DNA of 64,000 bases. Origin: Gemmatimonas sp. Lineage in GTDB: Bacteria > Gemmatimonadota > Gemmatimonadetes > Gemmatimonadales > Gemmatimonadaceae. How positions within the stretch are numbered: the first letter of the stretch is position 1; each line of letters opens with the position of its first letter. Location of the stretch: the NCBI GenBank assembly GCA_046590495.1, contig JBKJTE010000029.1, positions 329-64,328 on the forward strand. Reading direction: 5' to 3'. Positions 16,928 through 23,079 of this stretch are shown one piece after another. The translations under genes and the position numbers were made by a program. The notes beneath the pieces are model-generated. The model made no database searches. It saw nothing but the letters and a program-made list of their open reading frames with translations, and was not told the origin of the DNA.

Positions 16928-18667
16928 CTAACGCTTTTCCCGCTCGCCGGTCGCGTTGACATATACCGTGCAGGCGAGGTCAGGCCCCACGCGCGTCCGG
17001 CGAAAGAAGACGATACTCACTGTGAGTGAGAGTGATCCATTCGCCGAGAAGCGCCCGTTGAGACGAGTCACCAGCGCAGTGCTCGTTCGTGCCTGATCGG
17101 GCATAATCCGGGGCGTCGATGCGAAGTAGCCTTCGTGATCGATGTTGCTCGGGAAGTTGTCGCCCCCGTCAAATGCGATGTTGAGGGTGTCCGCGTTCGG
17201 GATGTGCATGACTGTTGCGTAGTCGACCGTTTGCGGCGTTCGTCTCCAGACCGACGTGCACTCCTTCGAACCATTCGCTTTGGCCGCGTCGTACCGAACG
17301 GCATAGCGACCGGCCACACCAGTTGCTCGAAGACTTGTGACGGCGGATCTGGGCGCGCTGCCTTTTCGTGAGGCGACCGCCGGTGTGGGTTCTGCCGTCC
17401 GGAACTTCACCGTGGTACCGAACTCCGTAGTGATCTGCTCGATGTCGTCCTTGCGAATTTCGTGTCGCAAGCCGCTGCGCATGTCGCGGAAGACCACGGT
17501 ACCTGCCCGGATAATGTCAACACGACCCACCATGCGCGTACCGTCGGTGAGCTGTACTTCGTCGTAGACGATTGGATCAGTGCGTGTGCTTGCGAGTCCG
17601 GTGGCAGCCTGCGGTCGTGAAGCACCACTCGCGCGACGCGCCGGTTCGACGATCAGCAGGCGCGCTGTATCGGCAGCGGTTCCCGGCAACGCATTAAGGG
17701 TGATTGCGGGGACGCCCGGCATTGCATCGCCCGCGCTAGCCCGTGGGGCCTCTTGAGCGCGTTCGGTCGCCACGGACGAAGCTGACGATTCGATTGCGGC
17801 GCCAACGGCTGCCGGCGACTGCGGCGGCGCGGTCGGCGGTGACTCGGCTACCCCGGCCTGGGACGGGGCCGACGATGACGCCGTCGTTTGCGCAGTCGCG
17901 CGTTCAGTCGCGCGGTCCTTACGAATTGAGACCACCATCTGTCCGATAAAAAACAGATACGCACTCGCCGCGCAGATCACGAGGTTTCGGACCAGCTTCG
18001 GATTCAGCGGCGGCACCGACGGTCGCGTTGACGCGATGCTTCGGATCGGCGGGCGCGCGTTGGACGGCTTTGTGTTCGCGCGCGCTGTACCCGTGCGACC
18101 GAGCGATGGCGTGCGCGGGTACGCGATACCAGTACCTGTCGCCGATACGGCAGCAGATGCCGCGGCCGGTGCCGACGCCGATGCATGCGTCTTGGTCGCA
18201 CCGAATGCGACTGTCTGCGTTGCGCGCGAAGGCGCTGCGCGCGAAGGCGCCGCGCCCTCGCCAGTTGTTGTGGTCTCGCTGGAGAATGGAGGCGCGATCC
18301 GCAGCCAATCGGCAGGGATTGCACCCAGCGCAAAGCCCCACGATTCCGCCGCCCACCGCGCCATCTCCGGCTGCACGAAACGCTCGGCCGACCATCGCAT
18401 CACGAAGGGCGATGTAAGCGCGTCCCAGCGCGCCGCGGGGATCGGCTCGGTTGGCAACGCATCAAGCCAGCCACGATGGATTGCTTCCAGCAGCAACTCT
18501 GCCAGCGGACGCGCATCACTCCCTGTTTCATCGAGTAGTCGATTGCGAAAGATTGCCAACGCCGCGGCGTCGCGCGCCGGCCGCTCCTGCTGCACGAGTT
18601 GACGCAGTGCGTTTCGCATACGAATGCGCGGATCAACAAACCTCGTCACGCAAACGCTCCCCGACAC
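16928..18667 (-). CDS. Uncharacterised single-pass membrane protein, paralogue 2 (N-terminal helical domain, Ala/Pro/Ser-rich linker, TM, extra beta-rich segment, C-terminal 2-Cys domain)
   Basis: It shares N-terminal (RNRLLDETGSDARPLAELLL...ARWAAESWGFAL) and C-terminal (GRYAVRY...ECTSV...LACTVYV) similarity with ORF 18693..20006. The TM is LVICAASAYLFFIGQMVVSI. The start is GTG 18667 or ATG 18619. Confidence 0.7.
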   Translation of the reverse strand: MSGSVCVTRFVDPRIRMRNALRQLVQQERPARDAAALAIFRNRLLDETGSDARPLAELLLEAIHRGWLDALPTEPIPAARWDALTSPFVMRWSAERFVQPEMARWAAESWGFALGAIPADWLRIAPPFSSETTTTGEGAAPSRAAPSRATQTVAFGATKTHASASAPAAASAAVSATGTGIAYPRTPSLGRTGTARANTKPSNARPPIRSIASTRPSVPPLNPKLVRNLVICAASAYLFFIGQMVVSIRKDRATERATAQTTASSSAPSQAGVAESPPTAPPQSPAAVGAAIESSASSVATERAQEAPRASAGDAMPGVPAITLNALPGTAADTARLLIVEPARRASGASRPQAATGLASTRTDPIVYDEVQLTDGTRMVGRVDIIRAGTVVFRDMRSGLRHEIRKDDIEQITTEFGTTVKFRTAEPTPAVASRKGSAPRSAVTSLRATGVAGRYAVRYDAAKANGSKECTSVWRRTPQTVDYATVMHIPNADTLNIAFDGGDNFPSNIDHEGYFASTPRIMPDQARTSTALVTRLNGRFSANGSLSLTVSIVFFRRTRVGPDLACTVYVNATGEREKR

Positions 18668-18692
18668 GGCGCGCGGTGCAGTACGTGCGCGT

Positions 18693-20006
18693 TCATTCCG
18701 GTATCCGCTCTGCGTCGAGCTGCGCGACCGTCGTGCACACCTGCGTGCGCCCCCAACGGAGAATCGCTTCGGTGTTGGTGCTCGTTTCCGCCGTGAATCC
18801 GCTGGACGTGAAACGACCGCGCATCCGGAAAGTCCACGTTACGCCGTCGGTCGTACCACGCTGTGGCCCGGCCTCAAAATATGCGTCGGCATCGAGGCGT
18901 CCGTTCACCGATCGCGACGCCAATGCAAAGAGGAAAGTCCCCGGTGCATGCGACACGACTTCAATCGTGCTCGGCGCGCGCGCGAGTGCATCGGCAACGG
19001 TGACGCAACTCGGACTGCCGGTCACCGACACCGAACGCTGCGTGACACGATAGCGTCCGCCCAAGCCGCGCGAGATCAGCTGCGCGCCATCGGACGGGGT
19101 CGGTGGGAGTGCAACTGAATGTGACGCCGACACACCACCAACGACGACACTGCGAACACCAGCCGCACTCTCGGCGGGCGGGAGAGCCCGCATCGCTCCA
19201 AGAGCGGCGATGCGAACGGAGTCTGCCGAGGAGCCTGGTTCGACGACGGGCAGCACCGACGCCGCCAGAATGTTCTCGACACGTCGCCCACGCAGCGCCA
19301 CGAAAGCGGCGATGAACATGACGACGGCAGCGATCCCCATCGTGGCCAATGCGGTCCGCTCAATCCGCTGCATCTGTGCGAGGCTTTTTGCGGTCATTGC
19401 GGGTGACAACGCACGCCGCCTCGCTATGACTGCCCGGGCGGTCGCCGGATGCACTTTCGCTTTTGCCGCATTGCCGGCCAATGCCACGGTTGCACCGGTT
19501 CGACCTGCGCTCTGACCACTCGCCGCCGACGGCGGGCGCAGTGGCGTGGGGGCACCGATCTGCGTCGGCGCAGGCCTCGCGACCGCCAACGGCACCATGC
19601 CAACGGCGCGGACAAACCCCGCGCTCGTAACCAAAGGGCTCGTTTCGGCATGCACAATCGACGGCCGTGTGACCTGTTGCGGCGCGACCTCCAGCACGGC
19701 GCCCCACGTGTCGACCAGCCATCGCGCGACGTCGGTTTGCAAGTAGCGCGTCGCGACGAGTTGATGCACAAGCGGCGCGCGACGCGCGTCCCACGGTACG
19801 TGCGCATTGTGCGCAATCAGTTGCGGTCGCAGCTGCGTCCCCGTAGCCAACAACAAATCGACCAGTGGACGATGATCGCTGCCGCAGGCGTCGAGCAACA
19901 AGTTGCAGAACTGTGCGGGTGCGCTGTCGAGCAGATCGGCGTGCGCCCGAAATGTCGCCGAAAGTGCCCCAGCAGTGCGCGCGAATGCGTCCTGTTCCAT
20001 CGACAT
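18693..20006 (-). CDS. Uncharacterised single-pass membrane protein, paralogue 1
   Basis: ATG at 20006, 9 nt after the kinase stop. N-terminal domain: CNLLLDACGSDHRPLVDLLL...ARWLVDTWGAVL. TM: ALATMGIAAVVMFIAAFVAL. C-terminal domain: GRYRVTQ...SCVTV...QVCTTVA. Confidence 0.7.
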   Translation of the reverse strand: MSMEQDAFARTAGALSATFRAHADLLDSAPAQFCNLLLDACGSDHRPLVDLLLATGTQLRPQLIAHNAHVPWDARRAPLVHQLVATRYLQTDVARWLVDTWGAVLEVAPQQVTRPSIVHAETSPLVTSAGFVRAVGMVPLAVARPAPTQIGAPTPLRPPSAASGQSAGRTGATVALAGNAAKAKVHPATARAVIARRRALSPAMTAKSLAQMQRIERTALATMGIAAVVMFIAAFVALRGRRVENILAASVLPVVEPGSSADSVRIAALGAMRALPPAESAAGVRSVVVGGVSASHSVALPPTPSDGAQLISRGLGGRYRVTQRSVSVTGSPSCVTVADALARAPSTIEVVSHAPGTFLFALASRSVNGRLDADAYFEAGPQRGTTDGVTWTFRMRGRFTSSGFTAETSTNTEAILRWGRTQVCTTVAQLDAERIPE

Positions 20007-20014
20007 GTTGTCGC

Positions 20015-21439
20015 TCAGTGCAACACGTCAAAGCGGAGCACACGTGTCGGCACTTCGCTGCCGATGCGCACCGCCAATCCCGGTACGCACTCGAGCGACG
20101 CATTGCGCCCGATGTCCGGTCCGTCGATCACGTGCCAAGTGGTGTCGCTGGTGTTCACGAGCCACCACTTGCCGCCATGTTGCGCGACATAGCCACGTGC
20201 ATCGCGCACCGCCCGTTCGTTGGGCAATACGCCGACGCGCAGGTGCCAGTCGTGGAGCGCGAGGTGATGCCACAGCACGAGCACGTCGCCTTCATCGACG
20301 ATCCCAGCGCCGGTGTCGCGAAGGTTGCGCGCCACAATTACCGGTGCCGCTACGCGTTCTTCGCCACGCATCGATGTCATCGGCAGCCCGGGACCGAGCA
20401 GTGTCCAGTGTCCTGAAGGCATAGGATAGAGGAGCTGCATCGTCCGATACAACGCCAGCTCCCACTCGGCGGCATCGGCCCGTCGCGCAGGACTGTGCAG
20501 CCCATCGACAAACGTCTGCGTGAAACAACGTGCGAGGTATGGACCTAGTCGCGCAAAAGGAATCTGGATAGAGTCGGTCGGCGGGTTGCGTCGATCGGTG
20601 GGATGCTCGACAAAGAGCGCGCGCGCTCCCATCGACAACTGTTCGTCCTCCTCCGCTGAGCGCGTGCTGTTCACACGCTTCCCTTGCAACGGATGACGCT
20701 GCAGCAGCAACTCGTACAGCAGGACCGCGAGTGCATGCTTGTCCGTCTCAATCGACGGCTGCGCTTTGTTCGACAATACCTCCGGCGCGATATATCCGGG
20801 CGTGCCCAGCACCGATGGCGGTGCAACGCCCGGCACCACAAGCGAGTCGATGTCGATGATGCATGCTTCGCCGCCTTTGGGATCGACGAGTACATTCTTG
20901 TTCGAGAGGTCCGCGTGTGCGAGCCCCGCCATGTGCAATCGTCGCACTGCTCGTGCAAGGCGCACGCCGATCTGCAGTCGTGTGAGCAGGTTGCCTGCTT
21001 CGGCCGCAGGCACAAAACGCGAGGCCTTGCCGCCCGAGAACCAACGGACCTCCTTCTCCTGTCGCGTGCCGAAACGATCAGTGAAGTAGAACGTCGGCTT
21101 ATACGTCGGCGTTACAACGGCGAGCGGTGGCCACACCAGCTGTTGCCTGCGCGCGAACTCGAGCGGGATCGCGTTCGCGCCATCCACCATTCCGACCGGC
21201 CAACAGAAGTACGGCGTCCAGTACGCGCCGTTTGTGGCAAGCGTCGGATTATAGTTGGTGAGAATGCGGGTCAGCCGGTCGACACGCTCGCGCCGGTCGG
21301 AAAGATGTCCATAGAAAAAACCGACCGCATGCTGGCGATCGCGCGTGAGAAATACGCGCTTCTCGGCGCCTGTCCCGACCGGCTCGTCCTCGATCTGCAG
21401 GACGCGCCCGTCCGTCAAACGGACGGCGACGAGACCCAT
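20015..21439 (-). CDS. Atypical eukaryotic-like Ser/Thr protein kinase with an extra C-terminal beta-rich (FHA-like?) domain
   Basis: Catalytic-loop-like HADLSNKNVLV, a DFG-equivalent IIDIDS, and an activation segment GTPGYIAPEVL. The C-terminal ~130 aa (GYVAQHGGKWWLVNTSDTTWHV...GLAVRIGSEVPTRVLRF) resembles FHA topology, which is inference. Confidence 0.75.
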   Translation of the reverse strand: MGLVAVRLTDGRVLQIEDEPVGTGAEKRVFLTRDRQHAVGFFYGHLSDRRERVDRLTRILTNYNPTLATNGAYWTPYFCWPVGMVDGANAIPLEFARRQQLVWPPLAVVTPTYKPTFYFTDRFGTRQEKEVRWFSGGKASRFVPAAEAGNLLTRLQIGVRLARAVRRLHMAGLAHADLSNKNVLVDPKGGEACIIDIDSLVVPGVAPPSVLGTPGYIAPEVLSNKAQPSIETDKHALAVLLYELLLQRHPLQGKRVNSTRSAEEDEQLSMGARALFVEHPTDRRNPPTDSIQIPFARLGPYLARCFTQTFVDGLHSPARRADAAEWELALYRTMQLLYPMPSGHWTLLGPGLPMTSMRGEERVAAPVIVARNLRDTGAGIVDEGDVLVLWHHLALHDWHLRVGVLPNERAVRDARGYVAQHGGKWWLVNTSDTTWHVIDGPDIGRNASLECVPGLAVRIGSEVPTRVLRFDVLH

Positions 21440-22434
21440 GCGACGAACAGTGTGCGGTCATCGTTTTCGCCACGCTTTTCAAACGCAAGCCACTCCATCA
21501 ACGCATGTACAGGGTCCGCGGCATGCAGCACTGCACCCCGCATCGCCTGAGTCATGCCTGCGGCCCCGGCATTGGTGTCATTCACGCCACTTTCCATCTG
21601 CGAGAAGAGTGCGGGCGCGTGGCGGCTGAACGGGTACCATGGGTCTTCGACGCCGTCCGTCGCCAGCAACAAGGCGTGAATTGCCGATGCGTCGTGCACG
21701 GCGAGCGATGCACCCAGCCGCTCCACGGCGCCGTCGTCAGGGAGAAAGTGCGTGACTTCACCGGAGAAGTCGCCCGCGTCGCCGCTGTGCGGTAAGTGCA
21801 CCGTGTGGTCGGCGCCGAGCAACGTGACCACACCATCGCCCACCTGAACGGTTGCGATGCGCGATGCATGTTCTGCCGCCACCAGCAGCGTCGTCCGGAG
21901 GTCACGCAGGGAGAGGTCCGCCAGTTCGGCGAATCGTCGCATGGCGCGATTGGCTGATTCGCCGGCGTGTGAGATCGCGGCGGGCAACGCATCGGCGGGC
22001 GCTCGGCCGTGTGCCAGCGCGTCGCGCAGCGCATGCGAGGCAACGTGCGTGGCGATCGCCGAACCGAGGCGACTCCATCGCGCGGAGCCCGCGCCGTCGG
22101 CCACCGCGGCACACCAACCCCCGGCAAAGGTGAGCACCACGCCAGCGTCTTCACGATGCTCGCCGCGATGAGCGTGCAGCCGTCCGCGACGCGACCCGAT
22201 CAGCAACGACCGGTGCGCTGACATCGCCCGGGTCCCTGTCGCTTCTACGGGGGCGTGCTGCCCGTCGGGAGCCTGCAATCCCGGGGCGACGATGTCGAGG
22301 TGCGCGAGCCACTCGTGCGGGCACCACGGGCCTTCTGGAAACTTGACACTCCACGTCGCGTGCGGCGGTGCGGACGCGCTCGACGCGCTCGACACAGCGC
22401 TCGCGGCATCGTTCGACGAAGTTGGTAATGTCAC
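21415..22434 (-). CDS. PP2C-family Ser/Thr phosphatase
   Basis: PP2C-like metal-binding motifs AVADGAGSARWS and LLATDGVEDPW. GTG start 3 nt after the vWA stop. It overlaps the kinase start by 25 nt. Confidence 0.75.
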   Translation of the reverse strand: MTLPTSSNDAASAVSSASSASAPPHATWSVKFPEGPWCPHEWLAHLDIVAPGLQAPDGQHAPVEATGTRAMSAHRSLLIGSRRGRLHAHRGEHREDAGVVLTFAGGWCAAVADGAGSARWSRLGSAIATHVASHALRDALAHGRAPADALPAAISHAGESANRAMRRFAELADLSLRDLRTTLLVAAEHASRIATVQVGDGVVTLLGADHTVHLPHSGDAGDFSGEVTHFLPDDGAVERLGASLAVHDASAIHALLLATDGVEDPWYPFSRHAPALFSQMESGVNDTNAGAAGMTQAMRGAVLHAADPVHALMEWLAFEKRGENDDRTLFVAWVSSPSV

Positions 22435-22437
22435 GCG

Positions 22438-23079
22438 TCAGGGAACGATCGTGATGCCAGGAGGCGGAGGGGGCAGGGTGATACCGACTCCATCGCCAAG
22501 CGCGCCAACTTTTGAACTCGTCTGCTTCACCGACGCCGAAACGAAGCGGAAAAACGCCTTGAATGCATCGGGCGACATGTCCTGCATCTGGATCACGCTT
22601 TCGGTGACTTGCTTGAGCACCTGTGTGTCCGCCTGATCGCCGCAGGCCACTGCGATGATGTTGGCGGGGCGACGCTCACGCAGCTGCTGCGCGTACATCG
22701 GCCATTCGGTGTCGGTCGGCGCGCCGTCCGAAAGGATGAAGACGAGGGGACGCCAATCGCCCTTCACTTCTGCGCTGGTGCGCACGAGTTCGCGATCAAA
22801 CACATCGAGCAACAGTCTGAGTCCGTCACCGAAGTGCGTGTTGCCGCTGGCGGTGAGCTCTGGAGGATTGAATGCGGCGACTTCGGTCAGCGGTACGACT
22901 TGCTGCGCGCTGTTGGAGAAGGTGAGCACGGACAGGTACGCGCTCTCGATGGCCTGTGGATCACCAAGCAGATCGCGATGCAACTGTCGAATTCCCGACT
23001 TCACAGACTCGATGGGGGTGCCCTGCATCGAGCCGGAAACGTCGGCAAGGATGTAGACCGGCAGGCGGCGAAGAGACAC
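22438..23079 (-). CDS. TerY-like von Willebrand factor A (vWA) domain protein
   Basis: MIDAS motif in RRLPVYILADVSGSMQGTPI, plus TFSNSAQ and LVFILSDGAPTD. 213 aa, GTG start. Confidence 0.85.
   Translation of the reverse strand: MSLRRLPVYILADVSGSMQGTPIESVKSGIRQLHRDLLGDPQAIESAYLSVLTFSNSAQQVVPLTEVAAFNPPELTASGNTHFGDGLRLLLDVFDRELVRTSAEVKGDWRPLVFILSDGAPTDTEWPMYAQQLRERRPANIIAVACGDQADTQVLKQVTESVIQMQDMSPDAFKAFFRFVSASVKQTSSKVGALGDGVGITLPPPPPGITIVP

Follow-up and report, generated by a model that had tools for sequence, protein, structure and literature searches.

Paralogous membrane proteins beside a vWA-PP2C-kinase triad in the photosynthesis gene cluster of Gemmatimonadota: candidate sensor or client subunits of a divided receptor kinase

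A five-gene group between the puf and puh operons

YegL, PphC and YegI of E. coli exemplify the TerY-P triad. Such a triad consists of a TerY-like vWA protein, a PP2C phosphatase and a Ser/Thr kinase that carries a C-terminal zinc ribbon (Anantharaman, Iyer & Aravind 2012, as summarised in PMC11090510). In PknI of Mycobacterium tuberculosis (PDB 5XLM), a cytoplasmic kinase is coupled through one transmembrane (TM) helix to an extracytoplasmic beta-rich sensor. The effector-associated adaptor domains (EADs; Kaur et al. 2020, PMC7159879) are small helical N-terminal domains that are common to the proteins of one locus and occur in variable fusions. The subject of this study is a group of five genes with likenesses to these systems, found in a stretch of 64,000 nucleotides (the window) from an uncultured bacterium of the phylum Gemmatimonadota, in which a photosynthesis gene cluster is located. 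The group consists of a vWA-PP2C-kinase triad and of two genes, here called B and A, whose products each appear to span the membrane once. Comparative genomics strongly supports a functional link of A and B to the triad, and we lean, with slightly better than even confidence, towards the view that the two proteins span the membrane and serve as sensor or client subunits of a switch that is linked to phototrophy and resembles a split receptor kinase. The question is of wider interest in that the inputs and outputs of vWA-PP2C-kinase modules are poorly understood despite their occurrence in defence systems and in E. coli.

The genes pufL, pufM and pufC occupy about 23.2-26.4 kb of the window on its minus strand, and the puh, lhaA and acsF genes about 12.3-16.9 kb on its plus strand. 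Between puf and puh lie the five genes, all on the minus strand, as are the features of their products for which coordinates are given below. The TerY-like stand-alone vWA protein is encoded at 22438-23079 (Pfam VWA 9.7e-11, VWA_2 6.7e-8), with a DVSGS MIDAS motif in the translation, followed by the PP2C phosphatase at 21415-22434 (Pfam PP2C_2 6.8e-36) and the Ser/Thr kinase at 20015-21439 (Pfam Pkinase 3.2e-15). Directly downstream of the kinase gene is B (18693-20006; 437 aa) and then A (16928-18667; 579 aa from a GTG start). In the database, A is called from a start at 18649, 6 codons further downstream, which gives a protein of 573 aa. The triad genes overlap or abut, only 8 nt separate the kinase stop from the start of B, and 25 nt lie between B and the listed GTG start of A. 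This spacing is compatible with one operon comprising the triad, B and A, which makes cotranscription of all five genes plausible. Terminator-like sites were not above chance in a pattern scan (6 found versus 4.8 expected). Only 5 nt lie between the end of A and the stop of a gene that converges on it. The B/A gene set is present once in this genome.

By composition and gene order, the triad is of the TerY-P kind: the sequences reveal the same three proteins, namely a vWA protein with a MIDAS motif, a PP2C phosphatase and a Hanks-type kinase, encoded in the order vWA-PP2C-kinase and tightly packed. In the distant loci described in the next section, the triad kinases also carry the CxxC...CWxxC zinc ribbon known from TerY-P kinases. 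The Gemmatimonadota kinase differs in that it lacks both the zinc ribbon and the canonical beta3 lysine. A further difference is that the triads considered here are extended by one to three genes with a common, unnamed helical N-terminal domain (N-domain), and that in the Gemmatimonadota the whole has a fixed place in the photosynthesis gene cluster and is specific to phototrophs. From the TerY-P anti-phage system (Gao 2020; PADLOC TerY/PP2C/STK_OB) the triad is set apart by the failure of the TerY and PP2C models to match and by an STK_OB match at E 0.043 only.

A scan of one genome per species yielded 60 loci, all of them from Gemmatimonadota except one from Methylibium. In nearly all of these species-level loci the order is pufLMC-vWA-PP2C-kinase-B-A, followed by the convergent puh operon; the B-A pair thus comes after the triad, between puf and puh, in about 55 Gemmatimonadota species. 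The phyletic pattern was determined in 121 evenly drawn genomes of the family, 12 of which contain pufLM. A/B were found in 8 of these 12 phototrophs versus none of the 109 non-phototrophs, and an orthologous vWA gene (at least 75% identity) occurred in exactly the same 8 genomes. It is this phyletic pattern, together with the adjacency of N-domain and triad genes across phyla, that argues for the functional link of A and B to the triad.

Rearranged loci are instructive. In one genome (G045, locus L057) the triad is located beside pufC and B-A follow 15 kb away, after bchI-bchD, still within the cluster. In genus g11 (L069) the triad and a single A-like gene are found together outside the photosynthesis cluster, which indicates that the linkage of the A-like gene to the triad survives rearrangement. 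Two well-assembled phototrophs without the module (G073, locus L067, and G099, locus L068) have pufC leading directly into the convergent puh operon; the module thus marks one large clade of clusters and not all of them. The PufC proteins of these two genomes are 44-47% identical to PufC of the window, and their photosynthesis clusters form a second lineage among those of the Gemmatimonadota.

In their rate of evolution, the vWA protein and the kinase are comparable to the subunits of the reaction centre. Mean identity to the window over 13 complete loci amounts to 89% for vWA, 80% for the kinase, 58% for PP2C, 47% for A and 40% for B, compared with 90% for PufL, 84% for PufM and 80% for PufC in the same loci; across loci, the identities range from 57 to 94% for the kinase and from 79 to 97% for vWA. 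The vWA protein is therefore level with PufL and more conserved than PufM, PufC or AcsF. Such conservation is uncommon in accessory proteins of signalling, and the partner of this one may be under tight constraint.

Zeng et al. (2021, PMC7844134) reported hypothetical genes in the interval from puh to puf of Gemmatimonas phototrophica and G. groenlandica, which are conserved in both isolates and were left without an assigned function. The ORFs drawn there in grey are the same genes as those considered here; they were presented without domain analysis, triad assignment or a link to other phyla. The present analysis gives a first functional frame for five conserved "hypothetical" genes amid the Gemmatimonadota photosynthesis cluster, and, as both species are cultured isolates, the question can be addressed directly by experiment. 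Neither the N-domain and the C-terminal domain (C-domain) nor the five-gene architecture and its place within the photosynthesis cluster appear to have been described in the searchable literature, with the proviso that an earlier mention of the N-domain in the 2012 paper that defined TerY-P is possible.

Paralogy of A and B and the association of the N-domain with triads

A sequence-only reading of the window had described A and B as tandem paralogues, similar at both ends, and had named a lack of significant similarity between them as an observation that would speak against this view. The similarity proved to be significant. Pairwise BLASTP aligned the N-termini with 41% identity over 83 aa (E 6e-12), and comparison of the family profiles by hhalign gave a probability of 99.9% (E 5e-31) for the N-domains. 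At the C-terminus no similarity was picked up by pairwise BLASTP; support was obtained from the C-domain profiles (residues 448-578 of A, 312-436 of B), which hhalign aligned over 119 columns with a probability of 98.2% (E 5e-14) and with both cysteines in register. The homologue sets comprised 115 sequences for A, all from Gemmatimonas or Gemmatimonadaceae, and 76 for B, all from Gemmatimonadota, and every one of them is unnamed or annotated as "hypothetical". When 97 sequences of the two families were aligned together, the C-domain showed no invariant columns other than G453, C470, G538 and C566 (A numbering), so that the two cysteines singled out by the sequence-only reading are invariant in all of them. 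Judged by these alignments, A and B are true paralogues at both ends. In the N-domain tree, the Gemmatimonadota sequences form one clade (100/99), within which the B sequences (99/82) and the A sequences (98/86) each make up a clade of their own, which points to a duplication inside the phylum.

The order of parts described earlier was also borne out. Near residue 220 each protein has its only segment of strong hydrophobicity, with Ala/Pro/Ser/Thr-rich linkers on either side. The TM helix of A comprises residues ~224-247 (17927-17998; hydropathy maximum 2.03) and is conserved as the single TM helix across the family, and that of B residues ~216-239 (19290-19361; hydropathy maximum 2.54). In A the order from the N-terminus is N-domain, basic Ala/Pro/Ser/Thr linker, TM helix, periplasmic linker, a barrel with an SH3/Sm-like fold and the two-Cys C-domain; B has the same arrangement without the barrel insert. 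The linkers on the cytoplasmic side are basic and nearly devoid of acidic residues, and those on the periplasmic side are not. We infer an N-in/C-out topology from the lack of a signal peptide, the cytoplasmic partners of the N-domain elsewhere, the basic cytoplasmic linker and the cysteine pair. The earlier statement that neither conserved domain belongs to a named family held: A and B found no match in Pfam, NCBIfam or PADLOC, sequence and profile searches of all PDB chains gave spurious matches only (E > 3), and the N-domain has no counterpart by fold in the PDB or in BFVD.

The N-domain occupies residues ~9-125 of A (18293-18643), with the signature ...LLD..GSD.RPL..LLLEA...ARWA.ESWG.ALG, and residues ~5-111 of B (19674-19994), which match the A domain in the pairwise and the profile comparison. 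AF2 predicts a six-helix bundle (89 sequences, pLDDT 91.9, pTM 0.88). Fold searches of the PDB (best E 3.1) and of the predicted viral structures in BFVD returned no match; a phage origin, which was considered, was rejected for want of a match in BFVD. In a profile search of 1.84 billion representative proteins, 1146 relatives were obtained at E <= 0.001 and 121 at E <= 1e-10, the distant members retaining the signature ...LL.D.CG..RrE..L..AlEe.vp..L...aArWAVesWa.ALG. The conserved positions are hydrophobic residues and two tryptophans, a pattern that would suit a scaffold better than an enzyme. No Pfam or NCBIfam model covers the domain, and 27 N-domains gave no consistent Pfam match, with one stray match at E 0.03. 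It is like the EADs in being a small helical N-terminal domain with variable fusions and common to proteins of one locus; it is unlike them in that no Pfam EAD or VMAP model matched beyond the stray hit, no Death-like fold was found in the PDB (E < 3), and the partner is a kinase/PP2C/vWA triad and not a STAND, MoxR or GTPase core.

In the distant relatives, the part C-terminal to the N-domain is FGE-sulfatase-like, TPR, WD40, LRR, PEGA with Sel1, DnaJ_C with GUN4, SH3, an alpha/beta-hydrolase, a second N-domain, or missing. These partners are for the most part modules for binding or recognition, of types that are often joined directly to bacterial Ser/Thr kinases. Three proteins (P0289, P0301 and P0308) contain two N-domains per chain, and the genes also occur in multiples, as a tandem pair in Methylibium and as a group of three on a metagenomic contig (L086). 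The occurrence in twos and threes suggests that N-domains act in pairs.

The sequence-only reading had proposed that co-occurrence with vWA-PP2C-kinase triads be examined across genomes, and such co-occurrence was found: outside the Gemmatimonadota, the N-domain gene lies beside a triad of this type in 21 of 22 contexts, typically directly after the kinase gene. In 12 of 13 contexts from Cyanobacteria, Acidimicrobiaceae, Methylibium and metagenomes, it adjoins vWA, PP2C and/or kinase genes. A less biased test was provided by an N-domain search of 201 evenly drawn Pseudomonadota genomes. The domain was present in 9 of them, and all 9 new places were located ~100 nt downstream of a triad-type kinase gene on the same strand, with vWA and PP2C genes upstream wherever the length of the contig allows. 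On the strength of these neighbourhoods, the N-domain is, we propose, a conserved module without enzymatic function by which the proteins that act together with vWA-PP2C-kinase triads can be recognised. With its 1146 representatives, it would be a widespread, unannotated marker of the client or sensor proteins of such triads.

The individual arrangements vary. In L073 the order is vWA-PP2C-kinase followed by a gene for an N-domain-FGE fusion, and in the cyanobacterial locus L078 the triad in the same order is followed by two N-domains. In Pleurocapsa (L074) two N-domain genes flank vWA-PP2C-kinase on either side. An N-domain-TPR gene follows vWA-PP2C in L081, an N-domain gene precedes vWA in L082, and in Acidimicrobiaceae (L083) the N-domain gene adjoins kinase, vWA and PP2C genes. 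Complete triads adjoin the N-domain gene in L084 and L085. The three consecutive N-domain genes of L086 are inserted between PP2C and kinase; one product is fused to TPR and the others have 199 and 420 aa. In Methylibium (L060) PrsW-vWA-PP2C are followed by the two tandem N-domain genes, and the kinase gene is divergent. The sole context of the 22 with no triad within reach is L080. L080 adjoins DUF499/DUF1156 genes, and L074 adjoins genes for TniQ/TnsD and Cas5d.

Proposed mechanism and alternative readings

In the proposed model, the N-domain of ~110 aa is cytoplasmic and most likely docks onto the soluble kinase, the phosphatase or the vWA protein, and the N-domains of A and B probably act as a pair, in the form of an A-B heterodimer. 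In general terms, the N-domain would attach varied modules non-covalently to a triad. The C-domain would face the periplasm, its two invariant cysteines forming a disulfide, and the SH3-like barrel of A would offer a further binding surface. A and B would read a periplasmic state, plausibly redox or a ligand related to the photosystem, and pass it to the cytoplasmic kinase/phosphatase switch. They probably tie the vWA/phosphatase/kinase switch to the periplasm in this way, and the five proteins together would amount to a receptor Ser/Thr kinase divided among separate polypeptides. The likeness to PknI is one of overall logic, a single TM helix connecting a cytoplasmic kinase with a beta-rich sensor outside the cytoplasm; the difference is that kinase and sensor reside on separate polypeptides, apparently joined by the N-domain. 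The output most likely concerns the photosynthetic apparatus, given the restriction to phototrophs, the fixed position in the cluster and the slow evolution of vWA and kinase. Minimal transcriptional regulation of photosynthesis-cluster genes has been reported in G. phototrophica (PMC11406998), which leaves room for a post-translational switch.

Several observations weigh against this model. The module is missing from 4 of the 12 sampled phototrophs and is therefore not essential to Gemmatimonadota phototrophy, and the single A-like copy in g11 means that an obligate A-B heterodimer is not universal. The Gemmatimonadota kinase, in which the canonical beta3 lysine is not found, may be atypical or inactive. 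No conserved Ser/Thr position was found in the linkers in the family alignments, so that direct phosphorylation of A or B is unsupported. The earlier proposal that the two proteins are partners or substrates of the triad is supported as regards the functional link, to which the phyletic pattern and the linkage of the N-domain speak, and A and B may be either sensors or substrates. The positive-inside charge count directly at the TM helix was uninformative with regard to topology, and the fold match of the C-domain to PknI (see below) is weak and has no sequence support.

It is also conceivable, although we regard it as rather unlikely, that the flow of information is reversed and that A and B are outputs, that is, substrates or effectors whose phosphorylation at the N-domain or the Ser/Thr-rich linker alters the periplasmic domains, for example in the assembly or stabilisation of reaction centre and antenna. 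The gene-linkage evidence fits an output equally well, Ser and Thr make up 30% of the cytoplasmic linker of A, and the genes are situated between the puf and puh operons, beside genes for reaction-centre assembly. Arguing against this possibility are the linkers themselves, in which no Ser/Thr position is conserved, and the difficulty of picturing inside-out signalling through one TM helix. Moreover, elsewhere the partners of the N-domain are mostly binding and recognition modules (TPR, WD40, LRR, Sel1, PEGA, GUN4, FGE-sulfatase-like), which is what would be expected of sensors.

Two further readings dissociate A and B either from photosynthesis or from the triad. TerY-P-like triads have been reported both to act in defence by themselves and to form parts of restriction systems (PMC11090510), and the five genes could be an anti-phage or conflict cassette of this type that is merely housed in the photosynthesis cluster, with A and B as its membrane effectors or sensors. 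The kinase matches the PADLOC models mad6 and PD-T4-6, N-domain relatives contain domain types common in conflict systems, and some of them lie beside defence or mobile genes, as in L080 (DUF499/DUF1156) and L074 (TniQ/Cas5d). A conflict cassette would hardly be expected to keep a fixed position and vertical inheritance in ~55 species, to be confined to phototrophs (8/12 versus 0/109), to be represented by a single A/B set in the genome of the window, and to contain vWA and kinase proteins that are conserved like reaction-centre proteins, unlike the fast turnover of defence genes. PADLOC gives nothing for vWA, PP2C, A or B, with STK_OB at E 0.043 only, and no further defence genes are found nearby in the window; we therefore judge this reading improbable. 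We hold it to be very improbable that A and B serve the double-ring photosystem as structural or assembly subunits and act independently of the triad, its adjacency being incidental. Their position between puf and puh, the single-pass topology with a periplasmic domain and the restriction to phototrophs would suit such subunits, and G. phototrophica does possess lineage-specific extra subunits, RC-S and RC-U (PMC8849296). These have been assigned to other proteins, A0A143BID3 and A0A143BK87, and A and B match no PDB chain in a set that should include the G. phototrophica RC-dLH entries of the same study; an identity of A or B with RC-S or RC-U was rejected on these grounds. The association of the N-domain with triads in non-phototrophs argues for a functional link to the triad, and in g11 the A-like gene stays with the triad and not with the cluster.

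The model of A and B as sensor or client subunits of the triad can be extended to a broader proposal, which we put forward tentatively and consider possible rather than probable. In phototrophic Gemmatimonadota, the horizontally acquired photosystem would be controlled post-translationally, not transcriptionally, by a Ser/Thr phospho-switch encoded in its own gene cluster, with A and B as the periplasmic receptor, possibly sensing redox by means of a disulfide. The N-domain would act as a docking tag of universal use, by which TerY-P-type triads become modular receptor kinases with interchangeable sensors (GUN4, FGE-sulfatase-like, TPR, WD40, LRR or membrane) across many phyla.

Periplasmic domains, the kinase and neighbouring genes

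The part of A that follows the TM helix was modelled by AF2 from 97 sequences, and two confident domains were obtained. The C-domain of A (residues ~448-577; 16937-17326; pLDDT >90) is beta-rich and contains the invariant Cys470 and Cys566; that of B (residues ~312-436; 18699-19073) contains the corresponding Cys334 and Cys424. The domain is probably periplasmic, and the two cysteines would then form a disulfide. Its best fold match in Foldseek is the sensor of PknI (5xlm_A; E 1.5e-3, probability 1.0), a marginal one at TM scores of 0.30 and 0.50 normalised to query and target length, respectively, with 14% identity and no sequence similarity detected. A PsbO-like fold was also considered and rejected, as the Foldseek superposition (TM ~0.2, rmsd 13-17 A) is generic beta-barrel noise. 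Outside the Gemmatimonadota no C-domain was recovered: a search restricted to the region returned family A only, a shared-word search in which distant relatives could be missed.

The second domain is the beta-rich insert that the sequence-only reading had noticed in the longer copy. It is conserved in the A family, has no counterpart in B and comprises residues ~366-423 (17399-17572), for which a five-stranded SH3/Sm-like barrel is predicted (strands E60-104 of the AF2 fragment, pLDDT ~90). It superimposes on Hfq chains over 45-48 columns with an rmsd of 0.9-1.7 A (Foldseek, probability 1.0). Comparison by hhalign revealed no match to B or to the C-domain, and there was no Pfam LSM or SH3 match. 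We read the predicted insert as a generic SH3/Sm-like barrel by fold and not as an RNA-binding protein, since the presumed periplasmic location argues against an Hfq-like role. Between the TM helix and the barrel, A contains the juxtamembrane motif PGVPxIT..LP...D..R...VEPARRA.G (residues ~316-347; 17627-17722; pLDDT 37-67), which is strongly conserved across the A family, is missing from B and may serve as a linear motif for binding.

The kinase matches PDB kinases over the catalytic and activation loops. Within residues 21-43 (21311-21379) a glycine occupies the position of the canonical beta3 lysine (AVGFFY versus ALKWY in related triad kinases), and a conserved lysine is found instead within the glycine-rich loop (GTGAEKRVF versus LGEGGQGEVY). 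This lysine arrangement resembles that of the eukaryotic WNK ("with no lysine") kinases, and the Gemmatimonadota triad kinases retain the catalytic-loop Asp/Asn and the APE motif. In related triad kinases of other phyla, the CxxC...CWxxC zinc ribbon is followed by a conserved beta-rich domain. The C-terminal ~110 residues of the Gemmatimonadota kinase (20015-20350) have kept the beta domain and lost the zinc ribbon. An FHA domain at this end was considered and found no support from sequence: there was no Pfam FHA match and no FHA structure in the PDB profile search.

Among the genes surrounding these loci, the convergent neighbours o170 and o227 in the window gave no PDB match. The cyanobacterial loci L074 and L076 encode proteins with an N-domain, DnaJ_C and GUN4 (tetrapyrrole-binding) beside their triads, and runs of coiled-coil proteins of ~300 aa alongside the N-domain and triad genes. 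Genes for PrsW-family membrane proteases adjoin N-domain/triad loci in Methylibium (L060, 5508-7025) and on a metagenomic contig (L084, 4088-5683), with a zf-HC2 anti-sigma factor and an ECF sigma factor nearby. PrsW queries also hit triad kinases in their C-terminal ~60 residues, with scores of 44-52 bits (kinase 3' ends of L087-L095), which suggests that PrsW proteins and triad kinases have a C-terminal module in common.

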